Source: Candidatus Omnitrophota bacterium (GTDB lineage Bacteria; Omnitrophota; Gorgyraeia; Pluralincolimonadales; Pluralincolimonadaceae). From it: a DNA stretch of 64,000 nt. Under the pieces are notes generated by a model. The model was given only the letters and a program-made list of their open reading frames with translations. It had not been told where the DNA came from and ran no database searches. The translations under genes and the position numbers were made by a program. Shown here piece after piece: positions 1,502-8,185 of the stretch. Location: the NCBI GenBank assembly GCA_003141835.1, contig PLNR01000002.1, positions 14,026-78,025 of the forward strand. Direction: 5' to 3'. Position 1 is the stretch's first letter; every line of letters begins with the position of its first letter.

Positions 1502-1870
1502 CTAATAAGTGCCGGACCTTTTCATGTGCTCGTCCGAGATGCCGAAATAATGGGCGATCTCATGGATCACCGTGCGCCTGATAGCTTCTTTTATGTCGTC
1601 ATCGGTGCGGCAGGCGCGCTCGATGTTGTTCCTGAATATCGTTATCTTGTCGGGAAGGACGCTGCCGTAATAATGCGTCCTCTTCGATAGCGGGACGCCC
1701 TGGTACAGCCCCAGGAGGAATACGCTCTTCTTTTCGCCGGAACTCCTTATCTGCTCGATCGTCGGCTCTTCCTCTATGACTATGTCTATATTCTCGAGTT
1801 TTACCTGGAATTCCTCAGGCAGGCTCTCGGCCGCCTCGACGACAAGGGCCTCAAAGGATTTCGCGTCCAT
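1502..1870 (-). CDS. minimal zinc metallopeptidase-like protein (Zincin_1/DUF1025-type, HEIAHYFG motif)
   Basis: 122 aa with a single HExxH motif (VIHEIAHYFGISDEHM) in a small acidic protein. Confidence 0.55.
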   Translation of the reverse strand: MDAKSFEALVVEAAESLPEEFQVKLENIDIVIEEEPTIEQIRSSGEKKSVFLLGLYQGVPLSKRTHYYGSVLPDKITIFRNNIERACRTDDDIKEAIRRTVIHEIAHYFGISDEHMKRSGTY

Positions 1871-1873
1871 ATC

Positions 1874-2281
1874 TTACTTGCCGCTTTCCTTTTGGCTCAT
1901 TGCCTTCAACTCGTTCACTTCTTTCTTGAGCTCGTTGATCGATTCCGCGGTCTCCTTAGCGAGCTTATCGAGCGTTTCGGCCAGTTTAGCGATGCGCGCT
2001 TCCAATTCGTCAAATCTCCTCGCCGCATACGAATCCAATCCCTCGGTGATGACGGTCCCGTCCATCTTGTAGACCCTCATCCCCTGCGGCACCATCAGGT
2101 CCATCCCGCCGACCTTTATGTTCTGCATCCCCGGGTTGCCTGACGGAGCGCCGGTGATCGGATGCGACTGGTAAAAATCATAAGACCCTACGTGCTGGGA
2201 ATCGTAAGTTTCCTGGGCATAAATATGTCCCGCCGGTAAAACTAAAAATAAAACCGCGGCGAACGCGTATATTAGCTTCAT
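1874..2281 (-). CDS. small secreted protein with C-terminal coiled-coil (hypothetical)
   Basis: Only the C-terminal 135 aa of the track ORF 1874..2854 look genuine: signal peptide MKLIYAFAAVLFLVLPAGHIYAQ and a KLAETLDKLAKETAESINELKKEVNELK coiled-coil. The start ATG at 2279-2281 overlaps the upstream gene's TGA (ATGA). Confidence 0.5.
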   Translation of the reverse strand: MKLIYAFAAVLFLVLPAGHIYAQETYDSQHVGSYDFYQSHPITGAPSGNPGMQNIKVGGMDLMVPQGMRVYKMDGTVITEGLDSYAARRFDELEARIAKLAETLDKLAKETAESINELKKEVNELKAMSQKESGK

Positions 2282-2991
2282 TTGGCCTCTCCCTGCGGAT
2301 GCAGCTTCTTCCATCTGTCGAGGAACAGGAAGTATACGCCCGGGCCGAAGGAAAGGAGCATTACTGAGATCCCAAGCGCTATGCCTATGAAAGTCGAAAA
2401 TCCCGCGCAGCAGTAATCCCTGCTCCTGGCGATGATATGCGTCGGGACCGCGACGAGTAATTCGAGGATGCTCCCCTTGAACATAAGCCTGCATTTCCGC
2501 TCCACGAAATTCCCGGGTTCGTATTTCTTGCTCCACCTGTAAAAGACCGCACCCCAGAGAAACCATACGGCAATAAACGAGATTATATATATCTGGACCG
2601 GCAGTATGGTCATCCACTTTTTGGCCTCGGAAATGTTTAAGCCGAGGATGAGCCAGGAGTAACCCTCCGGGCCTTTCATCACGGTTTCGGCGATAGCCGC
2701 ATAAATGCCGACGGCAAGCCCGGTCATTACAAAACTTATCGCAATAATAGAATAGATCACGGAGCGTTTCCTTACCGGGCGGCCGCTCCCCGTCTCGATC
2801 GGGATGCCCAATAACGCCGCCTGGCAGATGAGCATTACCGCGAACAACACCCAATACCTCAAGGATTCGATCACCTCAACCGCATTATTATAGGTAAGCG
2901 CGGGATAAAAAGCCGCGAGGATGACCGGCACGGTCAGGATGAATAGGATAACGCCGTAAAGCAGGACAACGATGATCGCGAAACGCTTCAT
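2278..2991 (-). CDS. polytopic membrane protein (hypothetical)
   Basis: Multiple hydrophobic helices. The start MKRFAIIVVLLYG at 2989-2991 overlaps the SemiSWEET stop (ATGA). Confidence 0.55.
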   Translation of the reverse strand: MKRFAIIVVLLYGVILFILTVPVILAAFYPALTYNNAVEVIESLRYWVLFAVMLICQAALLGIPIETGSGRPVRKRSVIYSIIAISFVMTGLAVGIYAAIAETVMKGPEGYSWLILGLNISEAKKWMTILPVQIYIISFIAVWFLWGAVFYRWSKKYEPGNFVERKCRLMFKGSILELLVAVPTHIIARSRDYCCAGFSTFIGIALGISVMLLSFGPGVYFLFLDRWKKLHPQGEAK

Positions 2992-3254
2992 GTCTTGCCT
3001 CCTCTGTTTTTTACCATCACCGCCAGAATATATATGCAAAAAACAATGGTCACTGCGTTCGCGCAGATTATCGGGAGATTATTTATAATGATACCATAAA
3101 CCAGCCACAATAATATACCGATTGAAAATATCACATACATCGGCATCGACAGGTCGCGCGTATGGTGAGTCTTGTAGACCTTATACGCCTGCGGAAAGAA
3201 TGCGAATGTTGTGCACGCGGCGGCAGCGAGGCCGAGTATGGTTACGGTGTCCAT
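2988..3254 (-). CDS. SemiSWEET / PQ-loop sugar transporter (bacterial 3-TM half-SWEET)
   Basis: 88 aa with FFPQAYKVYKTHHTRDLS...MY...LWLVYGI...LPIICANAVT, matching the SemiSWEET PQ-loop signature and triple-helix-bundle size. Confidence 0.8.
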   Translation of the reverse strand: MDTVTILGLAAAACTTFAFFPQAYKVYKTHHTRDLSMPMYVIFSIGILLWLVYGIIINNLPIICANAVTIVFCIYILAVMVKNRGGKT

Positions 3255-3928: not shown

Positions 3929-4144
3929 TTAGTCCCTCCAGAAATACAGCGCCGCGGTGAGGACGATACCGATAAGGTATGTGGCCAGCGATCCCGAGAA
4001 GAAATACGGATACGCCATTAGCGCGATCCCGATAGTCATTGTGCGCCACAGCGTATTCTTTTTGCCGTAAACGAACGCGACAAAACCTATCGCGCCGAAG
4101 ATAGAACAGGCGGCAATTTTGGCGAAATTAAAATCTCCGAACAT
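3929..4144 (-). CDS. small 2-TM membrane protein (hypothetical)
   Basis: 71-aa hydrophobic ORF immediately upstream of the flavoprotein gene on the same strand. Confidence 0.4.
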   Translation of the reverse strand: MFGDFNFAKIAACSIFGAIGFVAFVYGKKNTLWRTMTIGIALMAYPYFFSGSLATYLIGIVLTAALYFWRD

Positions 4145-4257
4145 AGCAATGCCTCTATCTCGTTCTACCTACATAACTTTAGCATCATCCTATAATTATA
4201 ATAGTACACTACTTACAGGATGGCATCTTTTAAGCCTCTAACTAATAGATTGAAAAA

Positions 4258-4968
4258 TTATATTGGCGTCGATACTTTCCAACGGCCATTAAACATTGCT
4301 AACATGCTCTGTCTAACGTCTTCTCCGAGCAACACTATAAAACTTTCTTTATTACCTAAAAAATTTAAACTATTTCCAGATAACCAAAAATGTTTCTCAT
4401 CAATTATATAACGATCATGCAATTCGCTACAATTATATATTTTGATTTCCACATTAAAACCCTCGGAATTAATATGGGCTAACTGTCTTTTAATTATCCC
4501 TGGAGGTTTATTATCGAGTCGCGCTGTAAGTAGTCTAATAGAGGCGGCCTTTTTAAAATTCCTGAAAATAACATCAAGTGTACCTATATCTACGTAAGGA
4601 TCGCATATAGAAACTTCTTTATACTTATCATCCAATATTTCTTTAATATTGTTTTTGGCAGAAAAAGGCTGATTGGCAGTAATAAATTGGATTTTCTTTT
4701 TTTGAATGACCTTTGCCAGTTCGTCTCTCCCCTTCTCCATTAATTTCCAACCGTCCTTATTCTTGTTACACATACCCTTATTTTTTTGAAGGACATAATC
4801 AACGGCCTGACGTGAAGTATCAAAATGAGCTTTTTCTATAAGGAAAGACGCGATTTCGGCAGATGAATATCTATCTTTTTTAGGGGTGGCTAAATACTCA
4901 ATAGCTTTATAAGCCTTCAGAGCTAACTCATCTATTCCATTAATTATACGTACTACATTATCTTCCAT
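4258..4968 (-). CDS. island protein: N-terminal winged-helix-like region + C-terminal domain with degenerate PLD/HKD-like motif (HDRYIIDEKHFWLSGNSLN); putative nuclease-like effector
   Basis: AT-rich coding sequence. The motif HxRxxxD(x6-7)G-N-S-x-N resembles the PLD-family HxKxxxxD...GSxN but is not canonical. There is one copy only, so it would need to dimerise. Confidence 0.5.
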   Translation of the reverse strand: MEDNVVRIINGIDELALKAYKAIEYLATPKKDRYSSAEIASFLIEKAHFDTSRQAVDYVLQKNKGMCNKNKDGWKLMEKGRDELAKVIQKKKIQFITANQPFSAKNNIKEILDDKYKEVSICDPYVDIGTLDVIFRNFKKAASIRLLTARLDNKPPGIIKRQLAHINSEGFNVEIKIYNCSELHDRYIIDEKHFWLSGNSLNFLGNKESFIVLLGEDVRQSMLAMFNGRWKVSTPI

Positions 4969-4998
4969 AGCTCTATTGATACCCCAATGTTCCTCTTA

Positions 4999-5370
4999 TT
5001 ATTTTAAATTGTTAATGACTTCCCGAATCTTTAGATTAGGAATTTCATATTTAACCTTACCTATAAGTAGCCCTCTGTCTCGAAGCTTCTTAAAAAGAGG
5101 ATCTATGGTCCCTTTTTTTATGCGCGTTGCTTCATGAAACTCCTGAGCAGTGATCATTTCATCCTTAATCAGATTTTTAGCCTTAAGGAGTTTTTTTGCT
5201 AATCCATAAACCAATATTTTCTGCTCCGCTGTTAACTTTGTATCCTTAAAATAAATACTATTGTTCGCCTTCTGAATAGTTATATGAGGCCGAAGCGCCT
5301 CAACCACCTCGGATTCACTAAAGGGACCGTTATCAGAGAATAAATCAGTTATCGTTAGTTTTTCAGCCAT
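4999..5370 (-). CDS. island small winged-helix-like protein, paralog 3 of 3
   Basis: Start MAEKLT is preceded by GGAGGAGG. The C-terminal ~85 aa align with the two neighbouring genes (LAKKLL...ITAQEFHEATRIKKGTIDPLFKKLRDRGLL). Confidence 0.6.
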   Translation of the reverse strand: MAEKLTITDLFSDNGPFSESEVVEALRPHITIQKANNSIYFKDTKLTAEQKILVYGLAKKLLKAKNLIKDEMITAQEFHEATRIKKGTIDPLFKKLRDRGLLIGKVKYEIPNLKIREVINNLK

Positions 5371-5473
5371 GACCTCCTCCTTAAATTTATTATTAATTTT
5401 TTCATATATCATTGCACTTAATCAACGCCATCCCATTTGCTATAGCCCTCTAATTAAAGAATTATCTTGCGAG

Positions 5474-5860
5474 CTATTCATTTATTTTTAGTAACTGTAT
5501 TGCTTTAGTTACTGCTTCTAAGGGAATAAAGTATTCTTTGCTATCTTTTAAAACAATATATTCCTTTCCCAGTGTCGTAAGCTGAGAAGCAACGGAAACC
5601 TGTTTTGCTGAAATCATCCTGGCTAATTCTTTATAATCAATAGTTTCTTTTTCTATGAGCCCCAAAATTAGGGAGGCTTTCTTGGCAAGCAAAGAGGCTA
5701 TTATTTTCTTTTTTATGTCTAACTTATTGCCTATTTCCGTCCATTGAATTCGACCTGTTTTTTCCTCAATTTGTAATAAGGGTTGAAGTGTCTTAGTCAA
5801 AAGCTCTTTATTCAAATCTTCTGTTTTTACTAAAAGTTTCTTTAAAGGCTCATTTTCCAT
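5474..5860 (-). CDS. island small winged-helix-like protein, paralog 2 of 3
   Basis: 128 aa. The conserved core LLAKKASLILGLIEKETIDYKELARMISAKQVSVASQLTTLGKEYIVL aligns with paralogs 1 and 3. Confidence 0.6.
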   Translation of the reverse strand: MENEPLKKLLVKTEDLNKELLTKTLQPLLQIEEKTGRIQWTEIGNKLDIKKKIIASLLAKKASLILGLIEKETIDYKELARMISAKQVSVASQLTTLGKEYIVLKDSKEYFIPLEAVTKAIQLLKINE

Positions 5861-5880
5861 TTCGATTTTCCTTTCATTAT

Positions 5881-6288
5881 TTAAATTTTTAATTTTCCTC
5901 TAATTGCTCTCACAAAATCTTGCATTTTCGCCAAACGGACTTTGTAAGAGCCGCGCGTCGTAGACTCTAATAATCCTTCATCTTTTAAAACAGAGGCATA
6001 GGCGGAAATTTTTTTAGCTTCAATTCCTAATCTTTTTTCCAATTCTTTCCAAGATACCTCAGAAGAAACATTCTCGTCAATATGCGCTAATAGAAATTGG
6101 CCTAGGCAATAAAGCGCTATTTGTTCTTTATCTGTTAATCTCGAGGTAAATTCGATTCGCACTTCTCTATTCTCCGGATCTATTTTTAGAACTCCCCGGC
6201 ATAGCTGTATTAGTTCTTTTGTAAGCGCCCCCCCTGTTTCCACTAAAGTAGACTCGATTAAATTCCTAATTTCATCTTTATTATCCAT
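5881..6288 (-). CDS. island small winged-helix-like protein, paralog 1 of 3
   Basis: Start MDNKDE is preceded by AGGGAG. Core LGQFLLAHIDENVSSEVSWKELEKRLGIEAKKISAYASVLKDEGLLE. Confidence 0.6.
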   Translation of the reverse strand: MDNKDEIRNLIESTLVETGGALTKELIQLCRGVLKIDPENREVRIEFTSRLTDKEQIALYCLGQFLLAHIDENVSSEVSWKELEKRLGIEAKKISAYASVLKDEGLLESTTRGSYKVRLAKMQDFVRAIRGKLKI

Positions 6289-6507
6289 TTTCCACTCCCT
6301 TTTAAAATTAACTATACCACATATAATCAATTTGTCAAGAAAATTTTTTAAAACTACTTTCTTCGACTAAGAGTTGTTAAATTGTAAGTTGAAAAAATTT
6401 ATACTAGGGTAACAAAAAATGCCCCTCAGAAATGGTTTAGTGCCGTCTTATTTGACATCCCCTCGTGATTAAAACGGGCTATCACCTTGCAGGATGCATA
6501 GCTATTT

Positions 6508-7104
6508 TTATTTCTTTCTCCTTTTCATAAAAGCATCGAATTTCTTACTCAAAACAAATACATAATCACAAATTGCATTTGTAAAATCCAGGAGATCGCG
6601 AGAGTCTTCTCGGGATATCTTCTCTTCGGTTGCATGCGCTCCTATGTTTCTATGCAATCTTAGGGCATCTGACCACTCAAAGATCTTCTTATCAATAATT
6701 CCTTTTTTAAGTAACTCCTTTAGTCCTCCATGCAGCGCTTTTTCTTTAGTTTTATATTCTGAGCATATACATTCTAACGCCCTGCCGCACATTACAGCAC
6801 AAGCATTATATGCCTTTGATTTATAGCATAGATTTGCTTCTTCTATGGCCGCCTGAACAGGACCAGGGATACTCCAATCTAAGTATTTTTTGGGATCTGG
6901 CCATACTCTAGTTGCATCATCCCACTCCCATTTTTCTGAACTGATCTGAACAAATTCTTGACAACCAATTAAAGAACGTTTACAAGCAGGACATTCTACA
7001 AATGATATTTTATATCGAAACTCATCTTGCGGATCAACTTCTTCGTGCTGAGCTAATATTTTTGCATCTACTTTTGCTTCGCAATAATTGCATTCTATAA
7101 TCAT
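6508..7104 (-). CDS. zinc-ribbon + DUF4145 (HEPN-superfamily-like, Rx4H motif) protein; putative RNase-type toxin/abortive-infection effector
   Basis: N-terminal CNYC...CPAC zinc ribbon. The C-terminal ...ALECICSEY...LRLHRNIGAHATEEK...NAICDYVF matches the DUF4145 pattern with R-N-I-G-A-H (Rx4H). The start MIIECNYC is preceded by GGAGGG, and a TATAAT-like -10 lies upstream. Confidence 0.6.
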   Translation of the reverse strand: MIIECNYCEAKVDAKILAQHEEVDPQDEFRYKISFVECPACKRSLIGCQEFVQISSEKWEWDDATRVWPDPKKYLDWSIPGPVQAAIEEANLCYKSKAYNACAVMCGRALECICSEYKTKEKALHGGLKELLKKGIIDKKIFEWSDALRLHRNIGAHATEEKISREDSRDLLDFTNAICDYVFVLSKKFDAFMKRRKK

Positions 7105-7122
7105 ATTTCCCTCCGTTACATT

Positions 7123-7151
7123 ATTATACTCTTTGTGCACTTATCTGCGAA
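7123..7151 (-). promoter_or_regulatory. candidate sigma70-type promoter for the DUF4145 gene (-35 TTCGCA, 17-nt spacer, -10 TATAAT)
   Basis: The minus-strand sequence TTCGCAgataagtgcacaaagagTATAATaatgtaacGGAGGGaaatATG was read directly. Confidence 0.3.
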
Positions 7152-7344
7152 TCGAGAATACGTTATTCTTCCCCATTTAAAGACAATAAAAAGCCATAAC
7201 TGATTATTTATCAAGTTATGGCTTCATCTGGTGCGTAACCAGTCGTTTTGATGCTTCATTCCTTGTCTAGACGCTCGAAATTAATATAATAATTTCGAGC
7301 AGACAAGGGATGATTCATTACTCCCTAAAATATTGAGGAATTCA

Positions 7345-7423
7345 TGGCGAGCCCGGAGGGATTTGAACCCTCGGTCTTCAGATCGACAATCTGACGTGCT
7401 AGACCAGACTGCACCACGGGCCC
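7345..7423 (-). tRNA. tRNA-Asp (anticodon GUC), CCA encoded
   Basis: The reverse complement folds as a cloverleaf: acceptor GGGCCCG/CGGGCUC (one G-U pair), D-stem GUGC/GCAC, anticodon stem UCAGA/UCUGA with loop UUGUCGA, T-arm GAGGG-UUCAAAU-CCCUC, discriminator G, then CCA. Confidence 0.8.
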
Positions 7424-7438
7424 GCGTATATTTCAGAA

Positions 7439-7515
7439 TGGTGGGCGCTAGAGGACTTGAACCTCTGACCTGTAGAATGTAAATCTACCGCTCTAACCAG
7501 CTGAGCCAAGCGCCC
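7439..7515 (-). tRNA. tRNA-Val (anticodon UAC), CCA encoded
   Basis: The reverse complement folds as acceptor GGGCGCU/AGCGCCC, D-arm GCUC-AGCUGGUUA-GAGC, anticodon stem GUAGA/UCUAC with loop UUUACAU, and T-arm AGAGG-UUCAAGU-CCUCU, then ACCA. Confidence 0.8.
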
Positions 7516-8185
7516 CTATATCCGACCACTTCTTCATGCCTTCGATCCAACCTTTTATCCTGCATTGAAGACGTGTATCGGAAATCACTATCTTAAATGT
7601 TCCTAGCGGCAGTGTATCTCTTTTGTTTTTGCTTGCCCTGCTGACGGCTAGATGCGCTTTATGAAATTGGTCTAAAGGTATGCCGCTGATTTGTGACCAA
7701 AATTTTTCGGCTTTTTCTTTATTTAAGTGCGGATGGATATGAACTCCACCGCGAAATTTAGCATCGTTTACTTTACAGATATCTTTAAAAAATTTCATCA
7801 TCAAGCGCACCATATGCGGGTCTGAATTAGTGAAAATTACCGTATTATTTCCTGCTTTCGACCCTTCTCCCCAATATAGCGCGCTGCCGACCGCTTTTAA
7901 GAGAGTATTCGAACATTCCGATGGGATTTCCTTGGTCGCGGAATTTTTAATATCTTTCCGGATTTTTCCCCACTTTTGCTTGGGGCTATTCGGGTGGTTC
8001 GCCGCAACTGCTCTTCCCTTATCCTGGTTCGATTTAAGCTTAGCTATCTGATCTTCGGTAAGGGGGATATCTTCAATCCACCTGCTGACAGCACCTTTCG
8101 AGCATTTGACGCGTTTCGTTATGGCTCGAAGCGACCAACCTTGCCTGCGAAGCTCTCTTGCAAGCTTTCTTTCTTCTGCTTTCAT
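7493..8185 (-). CDS. HTH-domain protein with LAGLIDADG-like motif (ALYWGEGSK); possible homing-endonuclease-like or DNA-binding protein
   Basis: N-terminal helix-turn-helix (LARELRRQGWSLRAITKRVKCSKGAVSRWI). The motif LLKAVGSALYWGEGSKAGNNTVIFTNSD resembles a LAGLIDADG block. The 3' end overlaps tRNA-Val by 23 nt. Confidence 0.4.
   Translation of the reverse strand: MKAEERKLARELRRQGWSLRAITKRVKCSKGAVSRWIEDIPLTEDQIAKLKSNQDKGRAVAANHPNSPKQKWGKIRKDIKNSATKEIPSECSNTLLKAVGSALYWGEGSKAGNNTVIFTNSDPHMVRLMMKFFKDICKVNDAKFRGGVHIHPHLNKEKAEKFWSQISGIPLDQFHKAHLAVSRASKNKRDTLPLGTFKIVISDTRLQCRIKGWIEGMKKWSDIGALGSAG

Follow-up and report, generated by a model that had tools for sequence, protein, structure and literature searches.

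Three anciently diverged members of an uncatalogued, putatively winged-helix protein family precede a putative PLD-like effector gene in an Omnitrophota genome

The A-B-C-D gene array

We analysed a 64,000-nucleotide (nt) stretch of contig PLNR01000002.1 from a Candidatus Omnitrophota bacterium, referred to here as the window, whose sequence matches the 142-kb metagenome-assembled contig ENA ERZ27254250 k141_8629. Three adjacent small genes, A, B and C, encode proteins of one family that we call leaders, and they are followed by a fourth gene, D, for a putative effector with a phospholipase D (PLD)-like domain. The genes and the predicted promoter ahead of them are as follows.

5881..6288, minus strand: gene A, 135 aa; leader-family putative winged-helix protein of a rare subfamily; first gene of the probable operon
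5474..5860, minus strand: gene B, 128 aa; leader-family putative winged-helix protein; conserved partner of A
4999..5370, minus strand: gene C, 123 aa; canonical leader type of cassettes with the order C-type gene, gene X, effector gene
4258..4968, minus strand: gene D, 236 aa; predicted effector with an N-terminal winged helix and a MIT_C-type PLD-like domain
6311..6338, minus strand: predicted sigma-70-type operon promoter; TTGACA, 16 nt including TG, TATAGT; 11 of 12 consensus matches

The open reading frames (ORFs) of all four genes are intact, the intergenic gaps are 20 nt (A-B), 103 nt (B-C) and 30 nt (C-D), and Shine-Dalgarno-like sequences lie upstream of A, B and C. The A promoter is the best match of the promoter scan in the region. 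The same scan found no consensus minus-strand promoter in any of the gaps, and a terminator search found none anywhere in the putative operon; in the B-C spacer neither a promoter-like site nor a terminator nor a structured RNA was detected. Two longer gene models were considered and ruled out. A 137-aa ORF for C, from an ATG at 5412, conflicts with a GGAGG ribosome-binding site and with the N-termini of homologues, which place the start at 5370, and a longer A ORF, from a TTG at 6330, would have the −10 box within it.

Homology of A, B and C

The initial annotation had proposed that the three small genes are paralogues which share an alignable C-terminal core of ~85 aa. Direct pairwise BLAST is nearly uninformative here, with BLASTP matching A to C at E = 0.001 and B to C at E = 0.009 and giving no match between A and B, and family profiles were required. 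A hidden Markov model (HMM) built from 79 proteins retrieved by C (C itself and 78 homologues), the C-type HMM, scored B at 34.3 bits (HMM positions 7–125) and A at 23.2 bits (HMM positions 8–124). The best of 1000 composition-preserving shuffles reached 15.6 bits for B and 6.6 bits for A. The profile scores thus clearly exceed the shuffled controls against which the proposal was to be judged, and the paralogy stands.

Profile–profile comparison with hhalign gave 95% for B and C (E 2e-8) and 89% for A and C (E 2e-6). A relationship between A and B was undetectable when they were compared directly; intermediates such as P0176, matched by A at 1e-7 and by B at 2e-18, connect the two. A superfamily HMM scored A, B and C at 76, 109 and 136 bits, respectively; all three belonged to its training set, and homologues of A and B outside that set score 64–107 bits. 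A, B and C are its sole matches in the 64-kb window. Each of the three gives a full-length match to the family (~120 of ~127 profile positions), well beyond shuffled sequences. Judged by these profiles, A, B and C are homologous over nearly their whole length. The C-terminal core does align as described, and the similarity is not limited to it, as the N-terminal helix and β-hairpin align too.

An exhaustive HMMER search of 1.84 billion representatives with a joint profile found 748 clusters (defined at 50% identity) at E≤1e-3, which is a minimum for the superfamily, and 158 at E≤1e-10. The members are nearly all 120–145 aa long and match over their full length. No significant family was found for leaders A, B and C in Pfam (2025 copy), NCBIfam 20, PHROGs v4 or PADLOC 2.0, nor was there any leader-family relative in the viral contigs searched. 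From these searches, A, B and C are best described as anciently diverged members of one uncatalogued family of ~125–140-aa proteins.

The second part of the initial annotation, that the array is a locally triplicated module, is not supported. Closer relatives outside the locus are 58% identical for C, 36–39% for B and 31% for A, as against 16–26% mutual identity among the three neighbours. Because each is closer to proteins elsewhere than to its neighbours, the comparison indicates that they did not arise by recent triplication. The full-length homologues among the 78 of C are 55–67% identical and occur across phyla. Four homologues of A were found (47–74% identity) and two of B, each of the latter on a contig that also bears an A homologue. 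The ratio of non-synonymous to synonymous substitution rates (dN/dS) is 0.12–0.23 for A and 0.06–0.09 for B, and because these values are low, both are maintained as proteins under purifying selection. Among 99 C-anchored loci, the window is the only one with more than one family member. At L094 (4023–4252, minus strand), two overlapping fragments of a second leader-family gene lie on the opposite strand to the first, apparently a frameshifted or decayed copy.

Predicted fold of the leaders

AlphaFold models were obtained for C (predicted local distance difference test score, pLDDT, 81) and B (pLDDT 86), and they have an identical order of secondary-structure elements. A floppy N-terminal segment with a conserved acidic motif leads into a helix, a β-hairpin and a long helix, after which the C-terminal part forms a helix-turn-helix with a β wing and a last helix. 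In both models this corresponds to the winged-helix topology (helix, strand, helix, recognition helix, β-hairpin wing). Foldseek searches of the Protein Data Bank (PDB) with the two models returned mainly winged-helix regulators (MarR, NadR, Crp, IclR, ArsR, AspA and Sso10a), with probabilities of 0.9–1.0 but E-values of just 0.01–0.1. The winged-helix-like character suggested initially is thus supported at the level of fold class for the two modelled members, C and B.

At the sequence level, A has weak HMM matches to MarR_2 (E 0.018, 15.6 bits against a cut-off of 27) and ArsR/SmtB (E 0.002, 17.8 bits against 55), B and C have no relevant MarR or ArsR match in Pfam or NCBIfam, and the leader-family profile gave only sub-threshold winged-helix matches to PDB sequences. 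With A below the curated cut-offs and B and C unmatched, the proteins are not assigned to the MarR or ArsR families. The leaders have basic C-terminal halves (isoelectric point, pI, 9.1–10.0) and acidic N-terminal 45 residues (pI 4.9–5.3). The acidic N-terminal motif, DLFSDSGPFDE in the C type and DPLxxLLVD in the family, is conserved and is modelled as disordered.

Cassettes headed by leader-family genes

In all 98 C-anchored loci besides the window, the C-type gene is the first gene of a cassette. Downstream genes were counted in the 51 non-redundant C-type loci with sufficient downstream sequence. In 40 of them the C-type gene is followed by X, whose ~138 aa include a coiled-coil-like stretch at the N-terminus. 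Next is an effector of 230–285 aa, which is a D-like PLD protein in 26 loci, a winged helix with a Ymh-type HEPN domain in seven, a member of the E3 family in six and of other kinds in three, and the junctions between cassette genes are short or overlapping. The frequency of D-like effectors bears out the earlier suggestion that the three small genes belong with the downstream PLD-like gene. The leader family is usually present in single copy per cassette, in the order leader, X, effector with its own winged helix. Within the window, A comes first, with its promoter, while B and C are internal, and in locus L100 an A-B pair is found without a downstream effector.

Extra small genes in these cassettes encode stand-alone copies of the effector N-terminal winged helix (hhalign 98% for E2 and S2, 100% for D and S1). 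We considered whether X, X2, S2 and the effector N-termini are further leader copies, and rejected this, as hhalign found no sequence relationship to the leader family. No significant family was found for X, S2 or E3 in Pfam, NCBIfam, PHROGs or PADLOC. More distant leader-family members head similar cassettes, with X next to come after P0176, and an S2-type protein followed by one of 287 aa after P0165 (loci L105 and L108). In P0131, P0186, P0201, P0205, P0213 and P0215, the leader domain is fused through a lysine/arginine-rich linker to an S2-type winged helix, the same type that heads the HEPN effectors. Such Rosetta-stone fusions are evidence, from domain architecture, that leader and S2-type winged helices may act together.

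The surroundings are those of defence islands. The commonest Pfam families among 140 flanking proteins are DNA methyltransferases (N6_N4_Mtase 9, N6_Mtase 5, Eco57I 4, D12 3), and serine recombinases (4), integrases, RhuM and a Tsp45I nuclease are also found. In L096 (229–9267), a type I restriction-modification operon carries a C-type leader, S1, X and a 246-aa effector between its hsdM and hsdS genes, where the classical prr locus has PrrC. The HEPN families Ymh and DUF4145 are both known from restriction-modification settings (PMC3710099). The small cassette proteins are absent from PADLOC 2.0, and the effectors share domains with its Aga_HEPN, PD-Lambda-3_B and PDC-S05 entries. A further C-type cassette, in L004 (3825–9155), stands between a Schlafen-like helicase–S24 peptidase fusion and a RhuM-Fic protein in a dense cluster of conflict genes.

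The putative effector D

In an alignment of 28 D-like proteins, H184-D185-R186, G198, F226 and W230 are invariant and D123 (conserved in at least 90% of the sequences) and K207 nearly so; D retains all the invariant residues. The D-family profile matched the MIT_C domain of the human MITD1 structure at 3e-4, with the HDR residues aligned, while Pfam MIT_C matched D at E 0.009, below the cut-off. D has the two features of MIT_C-type PLD domains, an HDR motif before strand β5 and an acidic residue after β2 (PMC12065111). It also matched PADLOC PDC-S05 (5e-14), NsnC (7.5e-5) and NCBIfam VPA1262_N_dom (2e-16), and it is 49% identical to the third gene product of L006 and L007.

The PDC-S05 match covers model positions 127–297 of 306 only, that is, the C-terminal part alone, and D was not accepted as a full-length member. 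On these alignments, D is a domain-level relative of a tested defence protein rather than a member of the PDC-S05 system. The tested PDC-S05 representative, which has a RhuM N-terminus, protected Escherichia coli from T7, T5 and T4, with plating of T7 and T5 ~1000-fold lower (bioRxiv 10.1101/2024.09.26.614923). The HDR-type PLD domain is the predicted effector in Menshen NsnC and in BrxL C-termini (PMC12065111).

Inverted repeats at leader promoters

The −35 box of the A promoter lies within CTTGACAAATTGA, a stretch that four A loci share without change and that is one base off in the distant L104. Upstream of CTTGACAAATTGA is a palindrome, TTGTCAAATTG-C-AATTTGACAA, perfect in L101, and its counterpart in the window, found by aligning the sequences ahead of five A-type genes, is as follows.

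6374..6393, minus strand: degenerate copy of the A-type upstream palindrome

The exact half-site TTGACAAATTG has a single occurrence in 64 kb, at the A promoter, and an inverted partner with one mismatch lies at 6374–6384 on the plus strand. The A-type element is kept across loci whose proteins share only 63–74% identity. In L104, the most distant A locus, the C-type palindrome ACTTGACAAGT takes the place of the A-type upstream palindrome.

C-type genes have an element of their own. The motif CAAGT-N(2-30)-ACTTG is present upstream of 32 of 67 non-redundant C-type genes (shuffle mean 0.3, maximum 3), always 77–116 nt before the start codon with the sole exception of L048 (−16), and a relaxed CAAGT/ACTTG core is found in 55 of the 67 regions against a shuffle mean of 10. 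A −35 hexamer (TTGACA or TTGCAT) starts with the right arm in 25 of the 32, and a −10-like box follows it after 16–18 nt. There is no CAAGT..ACTTG element anywhere in the 64-kb window, hence none upstream of C here. An inverted repeat over the gene's own −35 box is therefore present for A (CTTGACAAATTGA and the upstream palindrome) and absent for the window C. Because conserved inverted repeats overlap the leaders' own −35 boxes, these elements point to autoregulation, and the best-supported activity of a leader would be DNA binding at the conserved promoter repeats.

Origin of the array

In L100–L103, A and B homologues share contigs without C and D, and their surroundings vary from locus to locus. 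The two are adjacent in L101, after a methyltransferase and an EcoRII-type nuclease. In L102 and L103, an A homologue is followed by the start of a B-like gene that is interrupted at the contig end, and in L102 these genes lie downstream of a winged-helix and DUF4145-like pair. The A and B homologues of L100 flank a split DUF3800 gene, with no C, D or recognisable effector downstream. Gene X is absent from the whole window. With A-B found elsewhere without C and D, X and the C-type operator missing here, and a B-C spacer without a promoter, the array looks composite, apparently an A-B pair joined to a C-D remnant.

Some other features of these loci were noted. The split DUF3800-like gene in L100 (8460–9166) consists of ORFs of 153 aa and 82 aa, and it has either been frameshifted as an effector gene or been inserted within the A-B pair. 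In L102, the ~1.6-kb interval from the DUF4145-like gene to the A homologue (1560–3180) has no called gene or convincing ORF, and no Rfam match at E≤0.01. Further along L100 (10164–10221, plus strand), an nhaA-I (Na+) riboswitch match (51 bits, E 1e-7) lies upstream of a mechanosensitive-channel gene and is unrelated to the pair.

The low-GC island and its other genes

The array lies in a region whose base composition differs from that of its host contig. The features that accompany it are as follows.

4150..7340, no strand: low-GC island; adjoins two tRNA genes and carries the DUF4145 gene and the putative A-B-C-D operon
7345..7515, minus strand: tRNA-Asp (7345–7423) and tRNA-Val (7439–7515), the right border of the island (ARAGORN, Rfam)
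6508..7104, minus strand: zinc-ribbon and DUF4145 (HEPN) gene; neighbour in the island, outside the operon

The contig has ~54% GC overall, and composition profiles give only 33–40% for ~4150–7340. Every gene of the island is oriented on the minus strand. Neither an integrase nor an att-like direct repeat of the tRNA end was found in the island, and the two tRNAs were the only matches in the Rfam scan. No structured RNA and no terminator, such as one with a U-tract, was detected after D. A gene for a predicted membrane protein of 71 aa (3929–4144, minus strand) lies exactly at the left edge of the island. Beyond the other edge, a 230-aa ORF (7493–8185, minus strand) with a weak N-terminal HTH_23 or transposase-like helix-turn-helix (pI 10.1) overlaps tRNA-Val by its final ~23 nt, and its GC content is between the island and host values.

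The DUF4145 gene matches Pfam DUF4145 at 6e-20 (above the cut-off), PHROG 1305 at 9e-22 and PADLOC PD-T7-4 at 6e-6 over nearly the full length of the model (positions 3–191 of 211), and it has its own promoter-like site at 7151–7123. From these matches it is a separate upstream unit that resembles the single-gene PD-T7-4 system, and the functional link to the three small genes suggested by the initial annotation finds no support. In L102, too, a DUF4145-like gene is found ahead of A-B, so that the co-location seen in the window may not be accidental.

DISCUSSION

A model for the leader cassettes

We propose, with about as much confidence as doubt, that leaders bind the repeats at their own −35 boxes, that the cassettes are thereby autoregulated, and that the window holds a composite of A-B and C-D under the A promoter. 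In this model, the leader opens a mobile defence-island cassette that ends in the gene for a toxic effector bearing its own winged helix. By binding inverted repeats that overlap its own −35 box, the leader would keep the whole cassette, effector included, under autoregulated control. The window would then represent a conserved A-B pair with an operator-like promoter, joined to a C-D remnant that has lost the middle gene X as well as C's own promoter and operator. Because the remnant has lost its own promoter, A, B, C and D are probably one operon read from the A promoter. A would be the autorepressor of this operon. D, the target of C and possibly of B at the level of protein or of DNA, would be a latent MIT_C-type PLD enzyme released on phage attack or on loss of the element.

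Several observations weigh against this proposal. The distance between the CAAGT and ACTTG arms ranges over 3–25 nt, unusually wide for one dimeric repressor, the motif is partly just the −35 consensus TTGACA, and the window copy of the upstream palindrome is degenerate. X, or the winged helix of the effector itself, could bind the repeats just as well. No family HMM is above threshold for A, B or C and the structural matches are generic; the C-terminal domain is all that D has in common with the tested PDC-S05 protein. The retention of three leaders and the role of B are unexplained by the model. Finally, the tight gene spacing and the fusions of leader domains to effector-type winged helices fit an antitoxin or adaptor complex at least as well.

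Alternative explanations

That last point leads to a different possibility, in which A, B and/or C neutralise D by direct binding as protein-level antitoxins or adaptors, the copies serve redundancy or graded neutralisation, and any DNA binding is secondary or absent. Gene order is compatible with a type II antitoxin role, since C directly precedes D and, in most loci, toxic-type effectors follow C-type genes across junctions that are short or overlap. The conserved acidic N-terminal segment, modelled as disordered, would suit a docking peptide, leader domains occur fused to the winged-helix type of effector N-termini, and A has weak matches to the AbiEi and Csa3 winged helices. However, the matches to AbiEi are not significant, the conserved promoter repeats demand a DNA-binding protein, and A-B is found in L100 without a recognisable downstream effector. 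In addition, one leader subfamily pairs with unrelated effector domains (PLD, two HEPN types, E3 and others), so a leader cannot recognise the catalytic domain itself. We consider direct neutralisation unlikely, although it deserves to be kept in mind. Somewhat more doubtful is a role as sensor or specificity subunits, in which the winged helices would read foreign DNA (its sequence, its modification or a phage protein–DNA complex) and thereby recruit or release the effector, three leaders widening the range of triggers. Cassettes do contain several different winged-helix proteins as well as stand-alone copies of the effector winged helix, and they lie among restriction-modification genes, even between hsdM and hsdS. 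Sensors under arms-race selection usually diversify, whereas C-type leaders are highly conserved (55–67% across phyla) and the dN/dS of A and B is low. Extra copies occur in one of the 99 C-anchored loci, the window itself, and repeats at the leaders' own promoters are better explained by autoregulation. Winged-helix domains serve as sensors in Menshen NsnA and in restriction enzymes of types IV and IIS (PMC12065111; PMC11037411).

It is also conceivable that the array is a decayed mosaic, the result of an accidental fusion of cassettes in which A-B and C-D no longer cooperate and at least one gene is heading for loss. The loss of X and of the C-type promoter, the degenerate upstream palindrome of the window, the split DUF3800 gene between A and B in L100 and the lack of an integrase or att repeat in the island would all agree with decay. 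Against it stand the four intact ORFs with Shine-Dalgarno-like sequences before A, B and C, the purifying selection on A and B, the presence in D of every invariant residue of its family, and a promoter with 11 of 12 consensus positions, and we regard such decay as improbable. Foldseek matches to AspA (pNOB8) and the DnaD N-terminal domain, together with weak PHROG replication-initiation matches (E 0.025 or worse), raise the idea that the leaders are of the DnaD-N or AspA type and bind DNA in the replication or partition of a mobile element. All these matches are non-significant, there is no adjacent ParA, helicase, Rep or origin-like repeat, the neighbours are consistently toxin-type effectors and restriction-modification genes, and no relative was found in viral contigs, which makes this explanation very hard to sustain.

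A bolder reading is that the small winged helices are not mere repressors and serve as DNA- or trigger-recognition inputs that gate the effector, the window being a multi-input version with one MIT_C-type PLD. The cassettes would form a widespread, uncatalogued class of modular immune cassette, built of a leader winged helix, a coiled-coil winged helix and an effector with a winged helix of its own, and especially common in Patescibacteria and other uncultured lineages. We put this joint reading forward with considerable reservation.

Comparison with known systems

Restriction-modification controller proteins such as C.PvuII, C.AhdI and C.Esp1396I are ~80-aa helix-turn-helix proteins of the Xre type. 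By analogy, the leader cassettes resemble their systems in having a small DNA-binding protein encoded first and a toxic nuclease on a mobile defence cassette, and the palindromic operators over the leaders' own promoters suggest a similarly delayed, autoregulated expression of the effector. Leaders differ from controller proteins in their predicted winged helix with an N-terminal extension and have no sequence similarity to them; their cassettes lack a methyltransferase partner and place one to three additional small winged-helix proteins between leader and effector. With a winged helix in place of the Xre fold and a PLD or HEPN effector, the leaders were not counted as controller proteins, and the likeness in layout is an analogy.

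A further parallel in organisation is with AbiEi/AbiEii and omega-epsilon-zeta, in which one or more winged-helix genes lie ahead of a toxic enzyme, autoregulation is likely and the site is a mobile element or defence island. The order leader, X, effector resembles the regulator, antitoxin, toxin arrangement of tripartite systems. AbiEi, unlike the leaders, is 250–300 aa long with a toxin-binding C-terminal domain, and the leader-cassette effectors are PLD or HEPN proteins, as opposed to the nucleotidyltransferase AbiEii or the zeta kinase. Membership of AbiEi was rejected for the leaders, given that A matches it at E 0.004–0.026 over the winged-helix part only and that the partner is PLD-like instead of a nucleotidyltransferase. 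The C-terminal ~80 residues of the leaders are predicted to share the fold class of MarR-, ArsR- and IclR-type factors; unlike MarR, the leaders have no dimerisation helices and carry a distinct N-terminal helix and β-hairpin and the acidic motif.

For the effector, D shares the PLD-like fold, the HDR motif and the upstream acidic residue with PDC-S05, PB-PLD1 of Menshen NsnC, BrxL C-termini and the MIT_C domain of MITD1. The tested PDC-S05 protein bears a RhuM domain, whereas D bears a winged helix and accompanies leader genes. Sister cassettes with Ymh or DUF4145-like HEPN effectors resemble PrrC and RloC in lying among restriction-modification genes. Unlike PrrC and RloC, they have no ABC-ATPase sensor domain, and control is apparently exerted by small winged-helix proteins.

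Significance of the leader family

An autoregulated mobile cassette with a toxic effector follows a familiar logic; what is new here is the undescribed leader family and the unusual arrangement of three leaders. If the leaders merely autorepress a toxin–antitoxin-like module, they extend a well-known theme in a routine way. The regulatory hypothesis can be tested directly through the conserved promoter repeats. The three genes open the way to a family that comprises at least 748 clusters (at 50% identity) and consistently stands at the head of cassettes with exchangeable toxic domains in restriction-modification islands. Should the cassettes be defensive, they would offer a handle on the HDR-type PLD chemistry shared by Menshen NsnC, BrxL and human MITD1, and would constitute a new modular system that is rich in the candidate phyla radiation, whose genomes are tiny and whose defence repertoires are poorly known.

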